This document shows, piece after piece, positions 1 through 41,634 of a DNA stretch of 64,000 bases. The stretch lies in the IMG/VR virus record IMGVR_UViG_3300045988_121463, one strand, 5' to 3'. This stretch comes from a virus. Made by a program: the position numbers and the translations under genes. Under the pieces are notes generated by a model that worked only from the letters and a program-made list of their open reading frames with translations, was not told the origin of the DNA and searched no databases. How positions within the stretch are numbered: the stretch's first letter is position 1; each line of letters opens with the position of its first letter.

Positions 1-1
1 C

Positions 2-379
2 GTACAATTGCTTGACGATGATAGCCGTGAAGAATCCGGAAGTGGGACATATTACGAACGTGAATGTGATGCGCTGTTTGACATTGACGGACGCGGCAAT
101 ACGGAACGCCTTGTAGCCAGAAATCCAAAATTGAGAAATCTGCTGGAAGATGGCGAGTATATACCATCTCTTGGTCAATTAAATTTAATGGCCCATTATA
201 TGAACGAACTAAACAAAGCATTCACTTATGTTTCGGCATCTCCCCTCTCCTCGACGTGGTATTGGTCCAGTACTGAGAGCAGCCAGGCCGTCGCGTGGTA
301 CGTGGTCTTCTCCAGTGGCCTCACGGGCACCGGCAACAAGCACATCGGAGACATGGTTCGGGCGGTAATTGATTTTTAA
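2..379 (+). CDS. DUF1566 (Lcl C-terminal-like) domain protein, C-terminal fragment; reading frame is open to the window edge
   Basis: Motifs IPSLGQLNLM ... YWSSTE ... AWYVVFSSG ... K ... VRAV match the DUF1566 signature (LPTxxEL...YWSST...AW...F..G...VRxV). No in-frame stop upstream, so the N-terminus lies outside the window. Confidence 0.5.
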   Translation, partial: VQLLDDDSREESGSGTYYERECDALFDIDGRGNTERLVARNPKLRNLLEDGEYIPSLGQLNLMAHYMNELNKAFTYVSASPLSSTWYWSSTESSQAVAWYVVFSSGLTGTGNKHIGDMVRAVIDF

Positions 380-5199: not shown

Positions 5200-5385
5200 G
5201 TGGCTACGATAGTAAATGAGGAGGAAAGAAGATTTGATATGAGCCTAAGAATGTCACAGTATCAATTGGCGTTAGTTATAAAAGGCATCTTATCTAATAA
5301 TGAAATGATGATGATGGACGTTTTGCAGTGGTGTTCTGAAAGATTTAAAAATAGTATAGAGAAAGGAAAGAAATCAACTAATTAA
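5200..5385 (+). CDS. hypothetical small protein
   Basis: 61-aa ORF downstream of TATCTTTG (5098-5105). Confidence 0.3.
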   Translation: MATIVNEEERRFDMSLRMSQYQLALVIKGILSNNEMMMMDVLQWCSERFKNSIEKGKKSTN

Positions 5386-9879: not shown

Positions 9880-10138
9880 TATGGAAAATTACAAAAACAC
9901 TTTAAATGAGGTAGTGGTGATCGAATCGTCACCAGAAACGTGTTTTGTTTACGCTATTCGTAATGCTATTCGTATCTCTAAATGTGCGTATCCGACAGCC
10001 AAGAAAGTAATTTTCAAAAGAGAGGATGTAGAGGTAGAGATTTCGGAAATGGAAACTGAAAACAGTTTGTATGAAAAGTTTAAAGAAAAACAAAAGAATA
10101 GGGTATGGAACTTAATGAGCGCCAACAACGGGTTTTAA
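9863..10138 (+). CDS. hypothetical protein
   Basis: 91-aa ORF. Confidence 0.3.
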   Translation: MKQADNMENYKNTLNEVVVIESSPETCFVYAIRNAIRISKCAYPTAKKVIFKREDVEVEISEMETENSLYEKFKEKQKNRVWNLMSANNGF

Positions 10139-14398: not shown

Positions 14399-16132
14399 AT
14401 GACAACAATCATGTACGTGTCAGCTATCTTAGCTGTAGTGATTATTTTGACAATCATCGGAGTCTTATCAAGGTATCGTAGATGTAAGCCTAATCAGGTC
14501 TTGGTCGTTTATGGTAAGACAGGTGGGGAAAAGAAATCGGCGAAATTATATCATGGTGGAGCGGCATTTGTCTTGCCTATTATTCAAAGCTATGATGTTT
14601 TGTCAATGGAGCCTATGCAAATAGATTGCAAGCTTACCGGTGCTTTGTCATCTCAGAATATTAGAGTAGATGTTCCTACGACTATTACAGTAGCTATCAG
14701 TACAAATCCAGAGATCATGCAAAATGCGGCAGAAAGACTTTTGGGAATGGATACCGAATCTACTGAAAATCTTATTACGGACATCGTTTACGGTCAGATG
14801 CGTTTGATTATTGCTGAAATGACAATCGAAAAACTTAATTCTGACAGGGATGAGTTTTTGGATAAGGCAAGAAAGAACATTGATAACGAGCTTAACAAGT
14901 TAGGTCTTTACCTCCTGAACATCAACATCAGTGACATTAGAGACGAAGCCGGTTATATTATGAACCTTGGTAAGGAGGCTGAAAGTAGGGCTCTAAACGA
15001 AGCACAGGCTAATATCGAAGAACAGGAGAAGCTGGGGGCTATTAAGATTGCTGTACAGCAGAAGGAGAAAGAAACGGCTGTGGCTAATACCAAAAAAGAA
15101 CAAGAGATTCAAATTGCTTGTACTGAAAAAGAAAAGGAAACAATAGTAGCTGAAACGAAGAAAGAAAAAGAAATAGCTTTGGCTTTAACCGATAAAGAAA
15201 AACAGATTGGTGTAGCTCAAGCAGATAGAGATAGGGCTGCGGTTATCGCAAAAACTTTAACCGACAAGGAATCGGCGATCGTAAGATCTAAGGCAGAACT
15301 TGAAGTAAATAAAGCCGAGGCTGAAAGGATGGAAGAAGTCGGAAAGAACAAGGCTGAAGCTGACAAGGAAGCAGCTATAGCAATACAAAACTCTGAAGCT
15401 CAGATTAAGAAGGCTGAGGCTGAGAAAAATGCGTCTATAGGATACAACAATGCCCAGAAGGAGGTTGCTGTGTCAGTATCAGAATTGCAGATTATCAAAG
15501 CTCAATCAGAAAAGAAGGCCGGAGAAGAAAAAGTTAAATCGGAAGCGGCTGTAAAAACAGCAAAAGAGCTTGCAGACAAAGAAGTGGAAGAAGCTAAGGC
15601 TAAGAAAGTTCAGGCTGCGCTTAAGGCTGAAAAGATTGTGCCGGCTGAAACCCAGAAGGAAGAGGCTATCTTGCAAGCTGATGCCGAGGCCGAGAAGATC
15701 AAACGCCGGGCTGAGGCTGAGGCATCAGCACATTTGGCAAAAGCTGAGGCAGAGGCAAAAGCTATTCAGATGAAGCTGGAGGCAGAAGCCGAAGGTAAGA
15801 AAAAGTCGTTAATGGCAGAAGCCGACGGATTTAAGGCTATGGTGGAAGCAGCAGAATCCAATCCTCAGATCGCCATCCAGTACAAGATGGTTAATCAGTG
15901 GAAAGAAATTGCCGGAGAACAGGTTAAGGCATTTGAGCACATTAACCTCGGAAATATCACGGTATTTGACGGCGGTCAGAACAGTACCGGTAATTTCCTT
16001 AACAATGTTGTCAAGACCGTCGCTCCGGCATTGGGAGTCATTGATCAGCTTCCGATTGCAGATACTTTAAAGAAATTAAAAGGAGATGACAAAAAAATAA
16101 ATACAATGGCCCAAGGTTACACTTGGGCCTAA
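14399..16132 (+). CDS. floT: flotillin-like SPFH/band-7 protein
   Basis: N-terminal TM helix. SPFH region YRRCKPNQVLVVYGKTGG ... GGAAFVLPIIQ ... NINISDIRDEAGYIMNLGKEAESRA is collinear with B. subtilis FloT. Long Glu/Ala-rich coiled-coil (EA repeats) and flotillin-type C-terminus. Confidence 0.85.
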   Translation: MTTIMYVSAILAVVIILTIIGVLSRYRRCKPNQVLVVYGKTGGEKKSAKLYHGGAAFVLPIIQSYDVLSMEPMQIDCKLTGALSSQNIRVDVPTTITVAISTNPEIMQNAAERLLGMDTESTENLITDIVYGQMRLIIAEMTIEKLNSDRDEFLDKARKNIDNELNKLGLYLLNINISDIRDEAGYIMNLGKEAESRALNEAQANIEEQEKLGAIKIAVQQKEKETAVANTKKEQEIQIACTEKEKETIVAETKKEKEIALALTDKEKQIGVAQADRDRAAVIAKTLTDKESAIVRSKAELEVNKAEAERMEEVGKNKAEADKEAAIAIQNSEAQIKKAEAEKNASIGYNNAQKEVAVSVSELQIIKAQSEKKAGEEKVKSEAAVKTAKELADKEVEEAKAKKVQAALKAEKIVPAETQKEEAILQADAEAEKIKRRAEAEASAHLAKAEAEAKAIQMKLEAEAEGKKKSLMAEADGFKAMVEAAESNPQIAIQYKMVNQWKEIAGEQVKAFEHINLGNITVFDGGQNSTGNFLNNVVKTVAPALGVIDQLPIADTLKKLKGDDKKINTMAQGYTWA

Positions 16133-16263
16133 TTGAAGAAATAAAAGCAGCATTCATAGATTTCCTGCCTGCGGGAACAGTGATTTTAAGTGCTTTACTA
16201 ATTACGATATTTTTAACATGGATTTTGGACAAGATTTAGAACCAGAAGAACTGACCGGGCATT

Positions 16264-16623
16264 ATGATCAGTGTTATGGAATTGATTTTGAAACAGAAGA
16301 AGAGGAGGATGAAGAATATGACGGATGAGGAATTTGCATTAGATAATAAGAAAAAAGTTGTTGTAAGAAAAAGAATATCCTATTTAAGCAAAGGGGATAA
16401 AGTGTGGATCGTGTCTTCCGACGGCTACCTGCTACACACGGACGTCGTTCGGCGGGATCGGGGCCGATCTTATGTGGATATAGACGGGATACTGTATTGG
16501 AAGCGAGGATTAGATGGCAAGCATCGTAATCGTAATAACTACATGCAGTTTGCCATGACGCCGGAGGACGGTAAGAAGTATGTCGTATATTACCCGGAAG
16601 GATTTAAAGACAATGACTTATGA
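16264..16623 (+). CDS. hypothetical protein
   Basis: 119-aa ORF. Confidence 0.4.
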   Translation: MISVMELILKQKKRRMKNMTDEEFALDNKKKVVVRKRISYLSKGDKVWIVSSDGYLLHTDVVRRDRGRSYVDIDGILYWKRGLDGKHRNRNNYMQFAMTPEDGKKYVVYYPEGFKDNDL

Positions 16624-18517: not shown

Positions 18518-19928
18518 ACTTAGACCTTACCAAAAAGAGGCAGTAGATGCCGGGCTTAAGTTCCTTACAGGAAGATCTAAGAAGCCTGGCATAATCGTAG
18601 CCCCATGCGGATGTGGAAAGAGCCTTCTGATATCCAAGATAGCACATGAAATAAATAGACCGACATTAGTATTACAGCCCTCAAAAGAGATTCTGGAGCA
18701 GAATTATGCGAAGACCGTATCATTCGGTTCTGAACCTACTATATATTCTGCTTCATGTGGTATAAAGGAGCTGTCGGCTATGACTTATGCAACATTAAAG
18801 AGCATAAAGAAAGATGTAGCGAGGTTGAAGGATATAGGGATAGATACCTTATTGATAGACGAATGTCATTCAGGATATTCTCCTGAAGAAGGTTCTGAAT
18901 TTATGGAGTTTATGAACGGGTTTCCAGAGGCGAAGGTGCTGGGCTTCACCGCCACTCCCTGCCGCCTCCGAACCTACAGTTCCATGCTGGAAGGAAACTA
19001 CAGCAAGCTCAATATGCTGACGAAAGACGAGCATAACTTCTTCAAGAAAATAGTTCATGTGACTCAAATACAAGAACTAACTTCTCAAGGGTTTTGGTGT
19101 CCACTTAAGTACGAACGATGGTCGTTTGATGAATCGGCTCTGATGTTAAACAGTACCGGAGCCGAATACACCAACGAATCTATTAAAGAAAGTATTGTAC
19201 GAAACGGCTTAAACAACTCTATCTACAAGCGCCTTCTTCAACTTATGAACGAGCGTAAAGCCATTTTGGTTTGCATGGATTCTATCGAATCATGTAATAG
19301 AATATCAGAGTTCATGAATGCCAGGATGGGAGCCATAACCGGTGTCGTAACATCGCTAACAACCAAAAAGAAAAGAGAGCAAATTATATCAGATTTCAAA
19401 GAAGGTAAGTTGAAAGTGGTTTTTAATTATTCAACGCTTGCTACCGGATTTGATTTTCCTGAACTTGATTGTGTGATGTTTGGGCGACCAACTTTCTCAT
19501 ATTCAACTTATTACCAAATATTAGGCCGCGCCGTCCGCATCCATCCTGACAAGAAAGAGGCGCTGATAGTTGATTGCTGCGACAACATGAGGCGTTTCGG
19601 TCGGATAGAAGACCTGACAATTGAGCAATTCCCTTCTAAGGGCTGGTGTATGTTTGCCGGCGATCAACTTCTGTCTAATATAAGGATGGGTGATATTATT
19701 ACCAAAGACGAGATCCTTCGTCGGGCAGCCTCGCTTAAATCTGTGAATGGAGATGGTAGGAGAGAAGACGATCTTGACAGTATAATAATGTGGTTTGGAA
19801 AATATGAAGGAATTAGATTCAAAGACATACCGGTGTCGTATTTTAGGTTCTTGGCTGAGAATATGGCAGTAAAACCAGGAGACAGGAAAGAAAAGATTAT
19901 CGAATATTATAATAGAATAAAAGCATGA
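18507..19928 (+). CDS. SF2 DEAD/DEAH-box helicase
   Basis: Motif I APCGCGKS, motif II LIDECHSG, motif III GFTATP, motif VI QILGRAVR. Confidence 0.8.
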   Translation: MGFELRPYQKEAVDAGLKFLTGRSKKPGIIVAPCGCGKSLLISKIAHEINRPTLVLQPSKEILEQNYAKTVSFGSEPTIYSASCGIKELSAMTYATLKSIKKDVARLKDIGIDTLLIDECHSGYSPEEGSEFMEFMNGFPEAKVLGFTATPCRLRTYSSMLEGNYSKLNMLTKDEHNFFKKIVHVTQIQELTSQGFWCPLKYERWSFDESALMLNSTGAEYTNESIKESIVRNGLNNSIYKRLLQLMNERKAILVCMDSIESCNRISEFMNARMGAITGVVTSLTTKKKREQIISDFKEGKLKVVFNYSTLATGFDFPELDCVMFGRPTFSYSTYYQILGRAVRIHPDKKEALIVDCCDNMRRFGRIEDLTIEQFPSKGWCMFAGDQLLSNIRMGDIITKDEILRRAASLKSVNGDGRREDDLDSIIMWFGKYEGIRFKDIPVSYFRFLAENMAVKPGDRKEKIIEYYNRIKA

Positions 19929-20287
19929 ACAGCAAAAGACGTAAGAAAATAGAGGATATTATTTCCAATTTGGAAAAGCATAAAACAGATCTTGAGTTTA
20001 TCAAATCAAAGCTGTCAGAGGTCAGGCATAATCTGGATTCAGCCAAGGATGATGTTGATATGATTTTAGACGAGGAGACAGAAGCAAGAGACAATACGCC
20101 GGAGTCGTTACAAGATACAGAAAGATATTATCAATCAGATGAGGCTGTAGCTAATATGGAGGCAGTTGTTGATGATATGGAAAGTATTGTAGGGGATTTA
20201 GAGAATGCGGTTTCAACCATTGATGATAAAATCGATGAGATAGAAACTGATATTATAGGAAATTTAGAGGCAGCCATAGGCGCATAA
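19925..20287 (+). CDS. strongly acidic coiled-coil protein
   Basis: 120 aa, about 37 D/E versus about 14 K/R; heptad-like repeats. Confidence 0.45.
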   Translation: MNSKRRKKIEDIISNLEKHKTDLEFIKSKLSEVRHNLDSAKDDVDMILDEETEARDNTPESLQDTERYYQSDEAVANMEAVVDDMESIVGDLENAVSTIDDKIDEIETDIIGNLEAAIGA

Positions 20288-20301
20288 TGTAAAAATATAA
20301 T

Positions 20302-20398
20302 CATAAAATATAACACAATATATTTGTATAGATATAATACGATACAAAAATATGTATCGTATTATATCTATACAAATATATTGTGTTATATTTTATGA
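20302..20398. repeat. about 95-bp near-perfect palindrome (about 45-bp arms, about 6-nt centre)
   Basis: Left arm CATAAAATATAACACAATATATTTGTATAGATATAATACGATACA is the reverse complement of the right arm TGTATCGTATTATATCTATACAAATATATTGTGTTATATTTTATG. TATATTTG occurs in the + sense at 20319-20326 and mirrored on the - strand at 20373-20380. Confidence 0.85.
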
Positions 20399-21129
20399 AA
20401 ACAAATGTTACAATGGTATCAAAAGACCGAGAATTATTTGGCGTAATAATTAAGCAGGACACTAAAACTTCGTTTATGTCCTTAACAGACCTTCAGGAAG
20501 CCTATACGAAGAAGAGGGTTGAGATGGGGTGGAATGAAAAGAGAATAGAGAATATCCTATCTAATAAGGAGAGTGCGGAACGTGTTTACTATATCCTTGA
20601 AAAACAAGGATATAAGATAGAATCAGGATTTCCTGGTTTTATACAATCTGTTGAAAAAGAGTCACTTATAAAAGTGATGAAAAAAATGGGAGCTTATAAG
20701 ACAATGGGTAGAGGAGAGAATAGGAGAACTATGTGTAATCCATATATATGGGTGCTTGTAGCTATGGAACTAAACCCTATGTTGTATGCTGAGGTTGTTA
20801 CGTGGTTAACAGATAAGCTTATCTTAAACCGAATAGAGGCAGGTGATAAATACAATGTCTTGTCAAGAGCTATATCAAGATTTCCGGATGCCGATTACTC
20901 CAAGATGGCTAAAGGCTTAAATTGGATTGTATTTAATGAGCATGAAAGCATGATAAGAAATAGGGCTACACAGGAGCAGTTGAAAGAACTTGAAACCCTA
21001 CAGTCTAATCTTGCATTCTGCATAGAGATGGGAACCATCTCTTCTTTCTCTAATTTAATGAACATGATGAGATCTATATATGTAAAGAAATGGGGAGAAG
21101 AGGCTGTAACTTCTAAAAACGTAAAATAA
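20395..21129 (+). CDS. possible KilA-N-type DNA-binding domain protein
   Basis: The N-terminus SFMSLTDLQEAYTKKRVEMGW resembles the KilA-N/APSES core. Start taken at the ATG inside the right palindrome arm. Confidence 0.35.
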   Translation: MKTNVTMVSKDRELFGVIIKQDTKTSFMSLTDLQEAYTKKRVEMGWNEKRIENILSNKESAERVYYILEKQGYKIESGFPGFIQSVEKESLIKVMKKMGAYKTMGRGENRRTMCNPYIWVLVAMELNPMLYAEVVTWLTDKLILNRIEAGDKYNVLSRAISRFPDADYSKMAKGLNWIVFNEHESMIRNRATQEQLKELETLQSNLAFCIEMGTISSFSNLMNMMRSIYVKKWGEEAVTSKNVK

Positions 21130-21130
21130 T

Positions 21131-21418
21131 ATGGGAGTAAAAGAAATAAGAGAACTACTTAGACTCTACAATCTCGAACATAGTGTCGTCCAGAACAAAA
21201 ACTCTGGGCGGTATTCTATTATTCTCCATAACAACATCATAGGAACGAACGTAGATGGAGAGAAGGTAGTTGTGTTCAGAACCATTCCGGATGGAAGCAA
21301 TACGTTCTCTATGGAGCGAAATAGATTCTATGAGGGGTTTGTAGAGGCTTTTGATGACGATAAGGCGATTGAAGCCGTAAGACAGTATTTTGAGAAAAAC
21401 AGAAATGATAGGGTATAA
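21131..21418 (+). CDS. hypothetical protein
   Basis: 95-aa ORF. Confidence 0.35.
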   Translation: MGVKEIRELLRLYNLEHSVVQNKNSGRYSIILHNNIIGTNVDGEKVVVFRTIPDGSNTFSMERNRFYEGFVEAFDDDKAIEAVRQYFEKNRNDRV

Positions 21419-25913: not shown

Positions 25914-25956
25914 TACAATAATCCCCGGCCATACAATAGGTGTACGGTTGGGGATT
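25914..25956. repeat. inverted repeat at the strand-switch point
   Basis: AATAATCCCC ... GGGGATTATT, 10-bp arms around a 23-nt spacer, in the convergent intergenic region. Confidence 0.5.
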
Positions 25957-26026
25957 ATTGTAATATATGATTAATAACCGTCTTATCTTATACTAATACA
26001 TTTTAGTACTATTTTTATATCTTTTA

Positions 26027-41127: not shown

Positions 41128-41634
41128 TCAACTAATCTAAACTAAAATACCATGAAAAACTTTTCCCTACTAAAACTAAAGAACGAACAAATGTATGAAA
41201 ATACATGCTTTTCACAAAGAATCCGTATCCTGTTCTTTGGTATGGTTAAGTACATGGGATATAGTTCTGATACTTAATCCGGTTTGATTTTGTATCAGAT
41301 TATAAATATAGGATTTTAAAACTACAGTTCTTAATTGACCTAAATCATTCATAATGTTTTTATACATAAGATGAATGCTGTTGTTACGTTTGATGGTACT
41401 GATTCTCATTTCCTACTGTTATTAGTTACGTTCGGTTCTTACTTTTTCCTTATTTCCATAATCCCTTCCTGAAACTAATATCGCAAAATTAATAAAAATA
41501 ATCCATAAACGACGAAAGTCTAACTTTTCTTGTATGTTATTGATATACGTGCATATGCAAGAAAAGTGAGACTTTCACAAGCCTCACTTTCCAAATCGTA
41601 ATTATGAAAAAACTATATTATATATATACAAAAA

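Follow-up and report, generated by a model that had tools for sequence, protein, structure and literature searches.

Quasipalindrome correction (the Ripley model) turns an imperfect inverted repeat into a perfect one, and intermolecular template switching has a published signature in which the arms are homogenised or expanded and the spacer is inverted (PMC8604942). At yeast REG2, an intermolecular switch with spacer inversion lengthened arms of 5 bp to 16 bp (PMC8604942). A further study describes how perfect RNA hairpins arise through template switching (PMC8794818). For transcription in Bacteroidota, the sigma-ABfr consensus consists of TTTG at -33 and TAnnTTTG at -7 (PMC7366714).

Here we analysed an intergenic palindrome in a 64,000-nt stretch of viral DNA (IMG/VR record IMGVR_UViG_3300045988_121463; hereafter the window) and its counterparts in related phages. 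We consider it likely that an ordinary intergenic control module mutated here very recently and that the long palindrome is the resulting allele, which occurs in this one sequence and is not conserved.

The palindrome and its neighbourhood

The features of the locus are as follows, where ‘relatives’ are phages carrying the homologous locus and segment B is the inner part of the left arm.

19925–20287, plus strand: acidic coiled-coil gene, with which the genes upstream of the hairpin end
20301–20398: whole perfect palindrome (46 + 6 + 46 nt), in a form private to the window sequence
20301–20316, plus strand: outer left arm TCATAAAATATAACAC (TCATAAAATTTAACAC in relatives), including the widely conserved box AAAATTTAACAC
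20310, plus strand: private T>A, partner 20389, abolishing the sole mismatch of the outer helix; T in all relatives
20317–20333, plus strand: inner left segment B, AATATATTTGTATAGAT, which holds TATATTTG at 20319–20326
20323–20326: TTTG in segment B, 20 nt 5′ of the ancestral loop -7 box; probable -33 element
20334–20346, plus strand: left arm of the ancestral 13-bp terminator stem, ATAATACGATACA; 13-nt microhomology of the proposed first switch
20347–20352: loop AAAATA, the reverse complement of the relatives' TATTTT (spacer inversion)
20345–20376, minus strand: promoter-like pair TTTG-N20-TATTTTTG of Bacteroidota type; putative ancestral promoter of the 244-aa gene, now facing away
20353–20365, plus strand: right arm of the ancestral 13-bp stem, TGTATCGTATTAT
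20366–20382, plus strand: new segment B′, ATCTATACAAATATATT, the reverse complement of 20317–20333, in place of a run of 6–9 T plus AT
20347–20381 (minimum) to 20334–20388 (maximum): block copied from the opposite strand under the two-switch model, its limits blurred by microhomology
20383–20398, plus strand: outer right arm GTGTTATATTTTATGA, the same as in relatives, with the start codon at 20395–20397 and the proposed return switch in TGTGTTA
20395–21129, plus strand: 244-aa gene with a predicted KilA-N/APSES-like N-terminal fold; protein 100% identical to that of the relatives
31-mers of the palindrome allele: GATACAAAAATATGTATCGTATTATATCTAT and TATTATATCTATACAAATATATTGTGTTATA

The initial annotation had described a near-perfect 95-bp palindrome with arms of about 45 bp around a 6-nt centre, one TAnnTTTG per arm in opposite orientation and the downstream ATG inside the right arm, a description that was borne out and right to within 3 bp. 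The arms (20301–20346 and 20353–20398) are 46 nt each and 100% complementary, giving 98 bp in total around the centre AAAATA (20347–20352). The motif TATATTTG is mirrored with one copy per arm, at 20319–20326 on the plus strand and at 20373–20380 on the minus strand, and the start codon occupies 20395–20397. A third TAnnTTTG, TATTTTTG, crosses the palindrome loop on the minus strand (20345–20352). The motif itself was found without enrichment across the window, with 64 occurrences observed and 66 expected.

An inverted-repeat scan of the 64-kb window returned the palindrome as the sole repeat with arms longer than 26 nt and the sole perfect one, the runner-up having 22-nt arms with 91% complementarity. 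Folded as RNA, the palindrome reached -64.2 kcal/mol (z = -15.7; 0 of 200 shuffles were equally good) and, folded as DNA, -43.6 kcal/mol (z = -16.7). It is far beyond chance. Two other inverted repeats were recorded in the window, both of 22 nt: one at 41514–41576 is 91% complementary with a 19-nt spacer, and the other, at 25914–25962, is 86% complementary with a GC-rich core (CCCCGG/GGGG). The latter sits at the turn of gene orientation and of cumulative GC skew, at ∼26 kb, and is probably a bidirectional terminator between convergent gene blocks. An Rfam scan of the window found tRNA only. Two tRNA genes, tRNA-Lys(ttt) and tRNA-Asp(gtc), were located on the minus strand at 63259–63477, the first of which was reported at the Rfam gathering threshold and the second was not.

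The 34-nt core of the arm had no second copy in the window with up to 3 mismatches allowed (chance expectation 0.00), and the 34-nt arm was present in 52 IMG/VR contigs of 22–154 kb as a single copy each, never as two. A family of identical repeats scattered through the genome, which the initial annotation had named as a finding that would overturn its proposals, was accordingly not supported by the arm search. It is next to inconceivable that the palindrome is a dispersed palindromic repeat or a miniature mobile element, since the palindromic shape and nothing beyond it speaks for such an origin, against the single copy in the window and the homologous sequence that relatives carry at the same locus between the same flanks.

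Downstream, the 244-aa product had been described as a KilA-N-like DNA binder. This reading is reasonable, although not proven: KilA-N was matched weakly, in 2 of the 28 family members (best E 0.047), and distant homologues in Vibrio and Bacteroides phages are annotated as KilA or transcriptional regulator, but a Pfam search of the protein gave no family match, KilA-N (PF04383) included. The AF2 model of the protein had a pLDDT of 79.5. We found no link between the 244-aa protein and the palindrome. Homologues of the gene were present in Hymenobacter, Dyadobacter and Chryseobacterium genomes (6 of 11 loci) and also in Bacteroides phages, which makes a phage host in the Bacteroidota plausible. 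A 20-kb WGS contig of Vibrio olivae CECT 8064 was found to encode a homologue of the 244-aa protein with 79% identity, far closer than the 44–54% of those in Bacteroidota genomes, and this contig may stem from gut-phage contamination instead of being Vibrio DNA.

The homologous locus in related phages

None of the ∼70 contigs in the ≥98% group of near-identical gut phages carried the palindrome. The layout in the relatives, taken from the 52 IMG/VR contigs, was TCATAAAATTTAACAC-AATATATTTGTATAGAT-ATAATACGATACA-TATTTT-TGTATCGTATTAT-T(6–9)AT-GTGTTATATTTTATG, from which the window departs by three differences, every one within the 98 bp. The loop is reverse-complemented (AAAATA versus TATTTT), the T-run and the following AT are swapped for ATCTATACAAATATATT, which is the reverse complement of 20317–20333, and a T>A change at 20310 leaves the outer repeat without its single mismatch. 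The same short form was found in Logan contigs encoding a 100%-identical 244-aa protein and in ENA and Logan contigs encoding an identical acidic protein. Two of the latter (L307 and L310) differ from the window by 1 SNP in 3,279 flanking nt and yet lack the palindrome, indicating that it is very recent. The perfect-form junction had 0 matches among JGI metagenome contigs and the inverted-loop junction had 0 matches in JGI metagenomes and in IMG/VR, the palindrome allele being known from one assembled sequence.

When window positions 9925–30300 were compared with the closest strains (contigs L314–L317), the sequences were near-identical over ∼3.3 kb at the palindrome and 96.7–98.8% identical over the surrounding 20 kb, an identity pattern that indicates a recombining, mosaic phage population. 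Other private events were sought over 20 kb of the closest contigs, but the search was uninformative because of this mosaic drop to 96.7–98.8% identity beyond the local 3.3 kb. One of these (L316, a Logan ERR4341722 contig) carries at 15080–16312, corresponding to about 25000 in the window, an IS605 OrfB/TnpB (Cas12f-like) gene inserted before the strand switch; this gene is absent from the window.

The sole phage relative in GenBank, csAssE-Sib (OR575929; 151 kb, human gut, ∼92% identity), has neither the palindrome or hairpin nor the 244-aa gene (5270–5300 versus 20288–21133 in the window). The stop of its acidic gene adjoins ATGAAAACAAATG, the first 13 nt of the missing 244-aa gene, fused in frame to a 95-aa ORF homologue (MKTN+ELREILKLY...), which looks like a deletion that left the start codon in place. 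A literature search on csAssE-Sib found nothing.

A replication origin, a cruciform or a telomere-resolution-type site would agree with a long, AT-rich and perfect palindrome beside replication genes (helicase and exonuclease), and an origin or cruciform was among the functions first proposed for it. However, the palindrome is absent from all relatives and the whole module from csAssE-Sib, the turn in cumulative GC skew falls at ∼26 kb, together with the flip in gene orientation, and not at 20.3 kb, neither iterons nor repeated boxes were seen around the palindrome, and its centre is without dyad symmetry. We regard such a site as highly improbable.

What the relatives have in common is a two-tier plus-strand quasi-palindrome with a 13-bp stem, a 6-nt loop and a run of 6–9 T. 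The stem is enclosed by an outer inverted repeat of 16 bp, which is weaker and has a T.T mismatch fixed at one pair. This hairpin stands after the exonuclease–helicase–acidic gene block, and a terminator scan called it an intrinsic terminator (13 pairs, loop 6, tail TTTTT). The same scan found 0 terminator-like sites in the window form, because its T-run is replaced by B′. Base pairing in the relatives was evaluated on an alignment of 21 distinct sequences from the G1 and G93 lineages, in which the compensatory changes reflect essentially one split. Compensatory double changes were found in 4 of the 12 tested pairs of the inner stem, with 99.6% of cells paired, and in 1 of the 16 pairs of the outer stem, with 87.8% of cells paired and one pair always T.T, while controls with the partner slid by 1–3 columns gave 21–52% pairing. 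The G93 lineage (93% protein identity) has a quite different stem of the same size, GTATCATGATG(C/T)A / TGCATCATGATAT, again followed by a T-run. In two further lineages, L216 and L217–L247, the stem polymorphisms are A>G in the left arm, which are tolerated as G.U on the plus-strand RNA only. From the conserved pairing and the G.U-type variation, the conserved element is most likely a plus-strand RNA hairpin, i.e. an intrinsic terminator.

The three functions offered by the initial annotation (origin or cruciform, bidirectional promoter–operator, transcript-processing hairpin) all presumed a conserved, designed element, where the relatives have only a 13-bp hairpin and a T-run. The transcript hairpin came closest to what is conserved. 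A simple terminator, cited there as an outcome that would contradict those functions, essentially describes the ancestral element, since the 13-bp hairpin and T-run of the relatives score as one; the window form itself scores none.

Small-scale variation was also seen in the relatives. At the equivalent of 20366–20373, the T-run varies from 6 to 9 T between strains (e.g. L056, L073, L074 and L121) by homopolymer slippage, which shifts upstream frames and may add to the 238-, 244-, 255- and 265-aa calls in one 90% protein cluster. One contig (L072, 2440–2500) has a ∼28-nt deletion between short ATAT direct repeats in which the left stem arm, and with it the terminator hairpin, is lost and the -7 box is kept, so that the locus is structurally labile.

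The same comparison bears on the idea that the palindrome is a functional operator with two symmetric halves, or a bidirectional promoter, to which the neighbouring KilA-N/APSES-like protein would bind as a dimer. The 244-aa product is probably DNA-binding, two lineages keep the outer repeat AAAATTTAACAC / GTGTTATATTTT, one compensatory change included, and the window form carries promoter-like boxes on both strands, all of which would suit an operator. On the other hand, the mirrored inner half-sites are confined to the window sequence, the right outer repeat is missing in L216 and L217–L247, which retain the gene, the tolerated variation is of the G.U type on the plus strand, fitting RNA pairing and not protein half-sites, and the 244-aa protein itself is unchanged. 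We judge an operator very unlikely; the mirrored TATATTTG, on which the proposed bidirectional promoter–operator had drawn, would be a copy made by mutation and an accident of duplication.

Longer stems were found at the same locus in L216 and L217–L247 (2400–2500), which have fixed stems of 29 bp and 24 bp, respectively, and 12–18-nt loops with a -7-like box. Compared with the common form, both have an inserted right arm that mirrors the homologue of segment B, and compensatory changes distinguish L216 from L217. These inserted mirror arms imply that arms had grown at this locus earlier too: both lineages look like an older expansion of the same kind in which the loop was kept in plus orientation, suggesting that hairpin arms have grown here repeatedly.

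A proposed template-switch account of the palindrome

The window allele probably arose by a replication template switch on the 13-bp terminator hairpin, a library artefact being less likely. A brute-force two-switch model applied to an ancestor of the L088/L307 type reproduced the window exactly, 20310 excepted, as anc[1..64-77] + rc(anc[42-49..83-96]) + anc[103-110..]; the switch points share 13 nt and 7–8 nt of microhomology. Sister sequences have an imperfect inverted repeat at the same site (the 13-bp stem within the 16-bp outer repeat), the changes in the window are the reverse complement of adjacent sequence between unchanged flanks, again except 20310, and the spacer is inverted (AAAATA versus TATTTT), which is the intermolecular signature and points to a switch between strands. 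A pure inversion between the outer repeats was rejected, as it would place ATAAAAAA instead of segment B to the left of the stem.

Apart from 20310, the window sequence follows directly from this arithmetic, and the setting of the mutation in a replicating cell may be pictured as follows. The nascent strand would quit its template within the left stem arm and anneal to the complementary arm of the other strand, where it would copy 35–55 nt comprising the inverted loop, the right stem and the reverse complement of segment B, before returning to the original template in TGTGTTA. Such a patch would swap the T-run for B′, invert the loop and extend the perfect arms from 13 to 45–46 nt, and a second templated event, the T>A at 20310, would then clear the last mismatch.

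The residual change at 20310 counts against a single-event model. A single-event account of the T>A was rejected because it fits no two-switch geometry: none yields both segment B on the left and A at 20310, so that two templated events are needed. With a flank divergence of ∼0.03%, the chance of a random change to the right base at 20310 is ∼1e-4, and the change is therefore best read as a second templated correction.

Strand-displacing polymerases produce inverted chimeras by the same template-switch chemistry, and a polymerase switch during amplification (e.g. MDA or PCR) at this hairpin-prone site might have become the consensus in vitro or during assembly. The occurrence of the palindrome in one sequence and in 0 of ∼70 near-identical contigs is as expected of such an artefact. 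Both flanks, however, continue collinearly in register, so that two switches, the second of them a return, would be needed, an extra templated correction lies at least 24 nt outside the copied block, and random chimeras seldom dominate a consensus. A de Bruijn fold-back, as reasoned from the sequence, cannot make the junctions B-C-l′ and C′-B′, whose k-mers longer than ∼14 nt are absent from the short form, and it was judged unlikely. Overall, an artefact of amplification or assembly appears rather improbable, and we retain a template switch during phage replication as the likely source of the allele.

Promoter context and comparison with known systems

In the relatives, the -7 box TATTTTTG lies on the plus strand at a distance of 30 nt from the ATG and runs through the loop into the right arm, of which it takes in the first two bases. 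A TTTG lies exactly 20 nt 5′ of TATTTTTG in close relatives and is the TTTG of TATATTTG; because of this position upstream of the loop -7 box, the TTTG of segment B is a probable -33 element. This arrangement fits sigma-ABfr promoters, in which TTTG is expected 19–21 nt 5′ of TAnnTTTG and the pair at a fitting distance from the ATG. TAnnTTTG was found to end 20–34 nt before the ATG in 150 of the 196 loci, compared with ∼2% in shuffles, and the loci with the conserved box include diverged 50–160-kb phages with unrelated upstream flanks. The L217–L247 lineage has a near-match only (TATATTTTTA). The motif, its spacing and its conservation suggest that the hairpin and the promoter of the KilA-N-like gene are interleaved, and transcripts starting just after the -7 box would escape termination because they would lack the left arm.

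The close relatives would also accommodate a sigma-70-like arrangement, TTAACA-17-TATAAT, with 11 of 12 matches, but because the G93, L216 and L217 lineages have not conserved it, a promoter of the sigma-70 type is not preferred. Exactly 30 nt upstream of the -7 box, we also observed a box TAAAATTTAACAC (20305–20316 in the window; also in L119 and L223, and as AAATTTATCAC in L136) that is kept in several lineages despite differing surroundings and in close relatives also forms the left outer arm. Its role may be that of an upstream promoter element or of a site for a regulator.

The -33/-7 pair in the window is intact on the minus strand only (20376 to 20345). The predicted regulatory outcome of the mutation is that the terminator of the window strain would lose its U-tract, that the 244-aa gene's own promoter would now be antisense, and that the start codon would be buried in the 46-bp stem of a -64 kcal/mol hairpin. 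Instability or a mildly deleterious effect is likely for a 98-bp palindrome and would agree with how rare it is.

We also considered the hairpin with its loop -7 box as a recombinase-independent, phase-variable promoter switch, of which the window would represent the ‘off’ or antisense state. If this were true, switches of template from one arm to the other would turn the 6-nt loop round and direct the promoter towards or away from the KilA-N-like gene, 46-bp arms would raise the flip rate, and the 24-bp and 29-bp stems elsewhere would be part of the same dynamic. As in Bacteroidales invertons, a promoter between inverted repeats is seen in opposite orientation, but no recombinase is nearby and the invertible unit is 6 nt, as opposed to hundreds, and mixed loop orientations were not seen among ∼200 loci. 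There is at most a slim chance that the locus is such a switch; in contrast to recombinase-driven invertons, the flip in the window is explained by a polymerase template switch.

To a specialist the palindrome would be neat more than surprising, and it does not open a question of long standing. It nevertheless offers a caution, namely that a perfect palindrome, however conspicuous in a single genome, may be something other than a designed element (an origin or operator, for instance); once near-identical strains were compared, it appeared as a fresh mutation of an ordinary terminator/promoter junction. It would also be a clean and large natural case from a gut phage in which a template switch both builds a long hairpin and inverts the spacer. 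The fixed 24–29-bp stems in other lineages suggest that template switches repeatedly shape the intergenic hairpins of phages, and such recurrent growth agrees with published work in which RNA hairpins are traced to template switching (PMC8794818).

Compared with known systems, the locus in the relatives resembles a Rho-independent terminator overlapping the next promoter, with a stem-loop and 6–9 T directly after a gene block and promoter elements interleaved. The window form no longer fits the definition of a terminator, as it is without a T-run and its stem is more than three times longer. The placement of a -7 box within the hairpin loop is unusual, though simple. The motif pair, its 20-nt spacing and the distance to the ATG are like those of Bacteroidota sigma-ABfr promoters (PMC7366714), and the -7 box is conserved across divergent phages; unlike a standard promoter of this class, the window has its intact pair solely on the other strand from the gene, and the host is itself deduced from homologues.

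The mutation itself is most like quasipalindrome correction (PMC8604942), in that an imperfect repeat would have been perfected by one templated multinucleotide patch with microhomology at both switch points, an inverted spacer and untouched flanks. It is bigger than the correction of the yeast REG2 type, with arms growing from 13 bp to 46 bp, a patch of 35–55 nt and the need for a second base change. The patch also differs from quasipalindrome correction in what it strikes, which is a phage terminator/promoter module where, in place of changed codons, the U-tract would be deleted and the promoter reversed.
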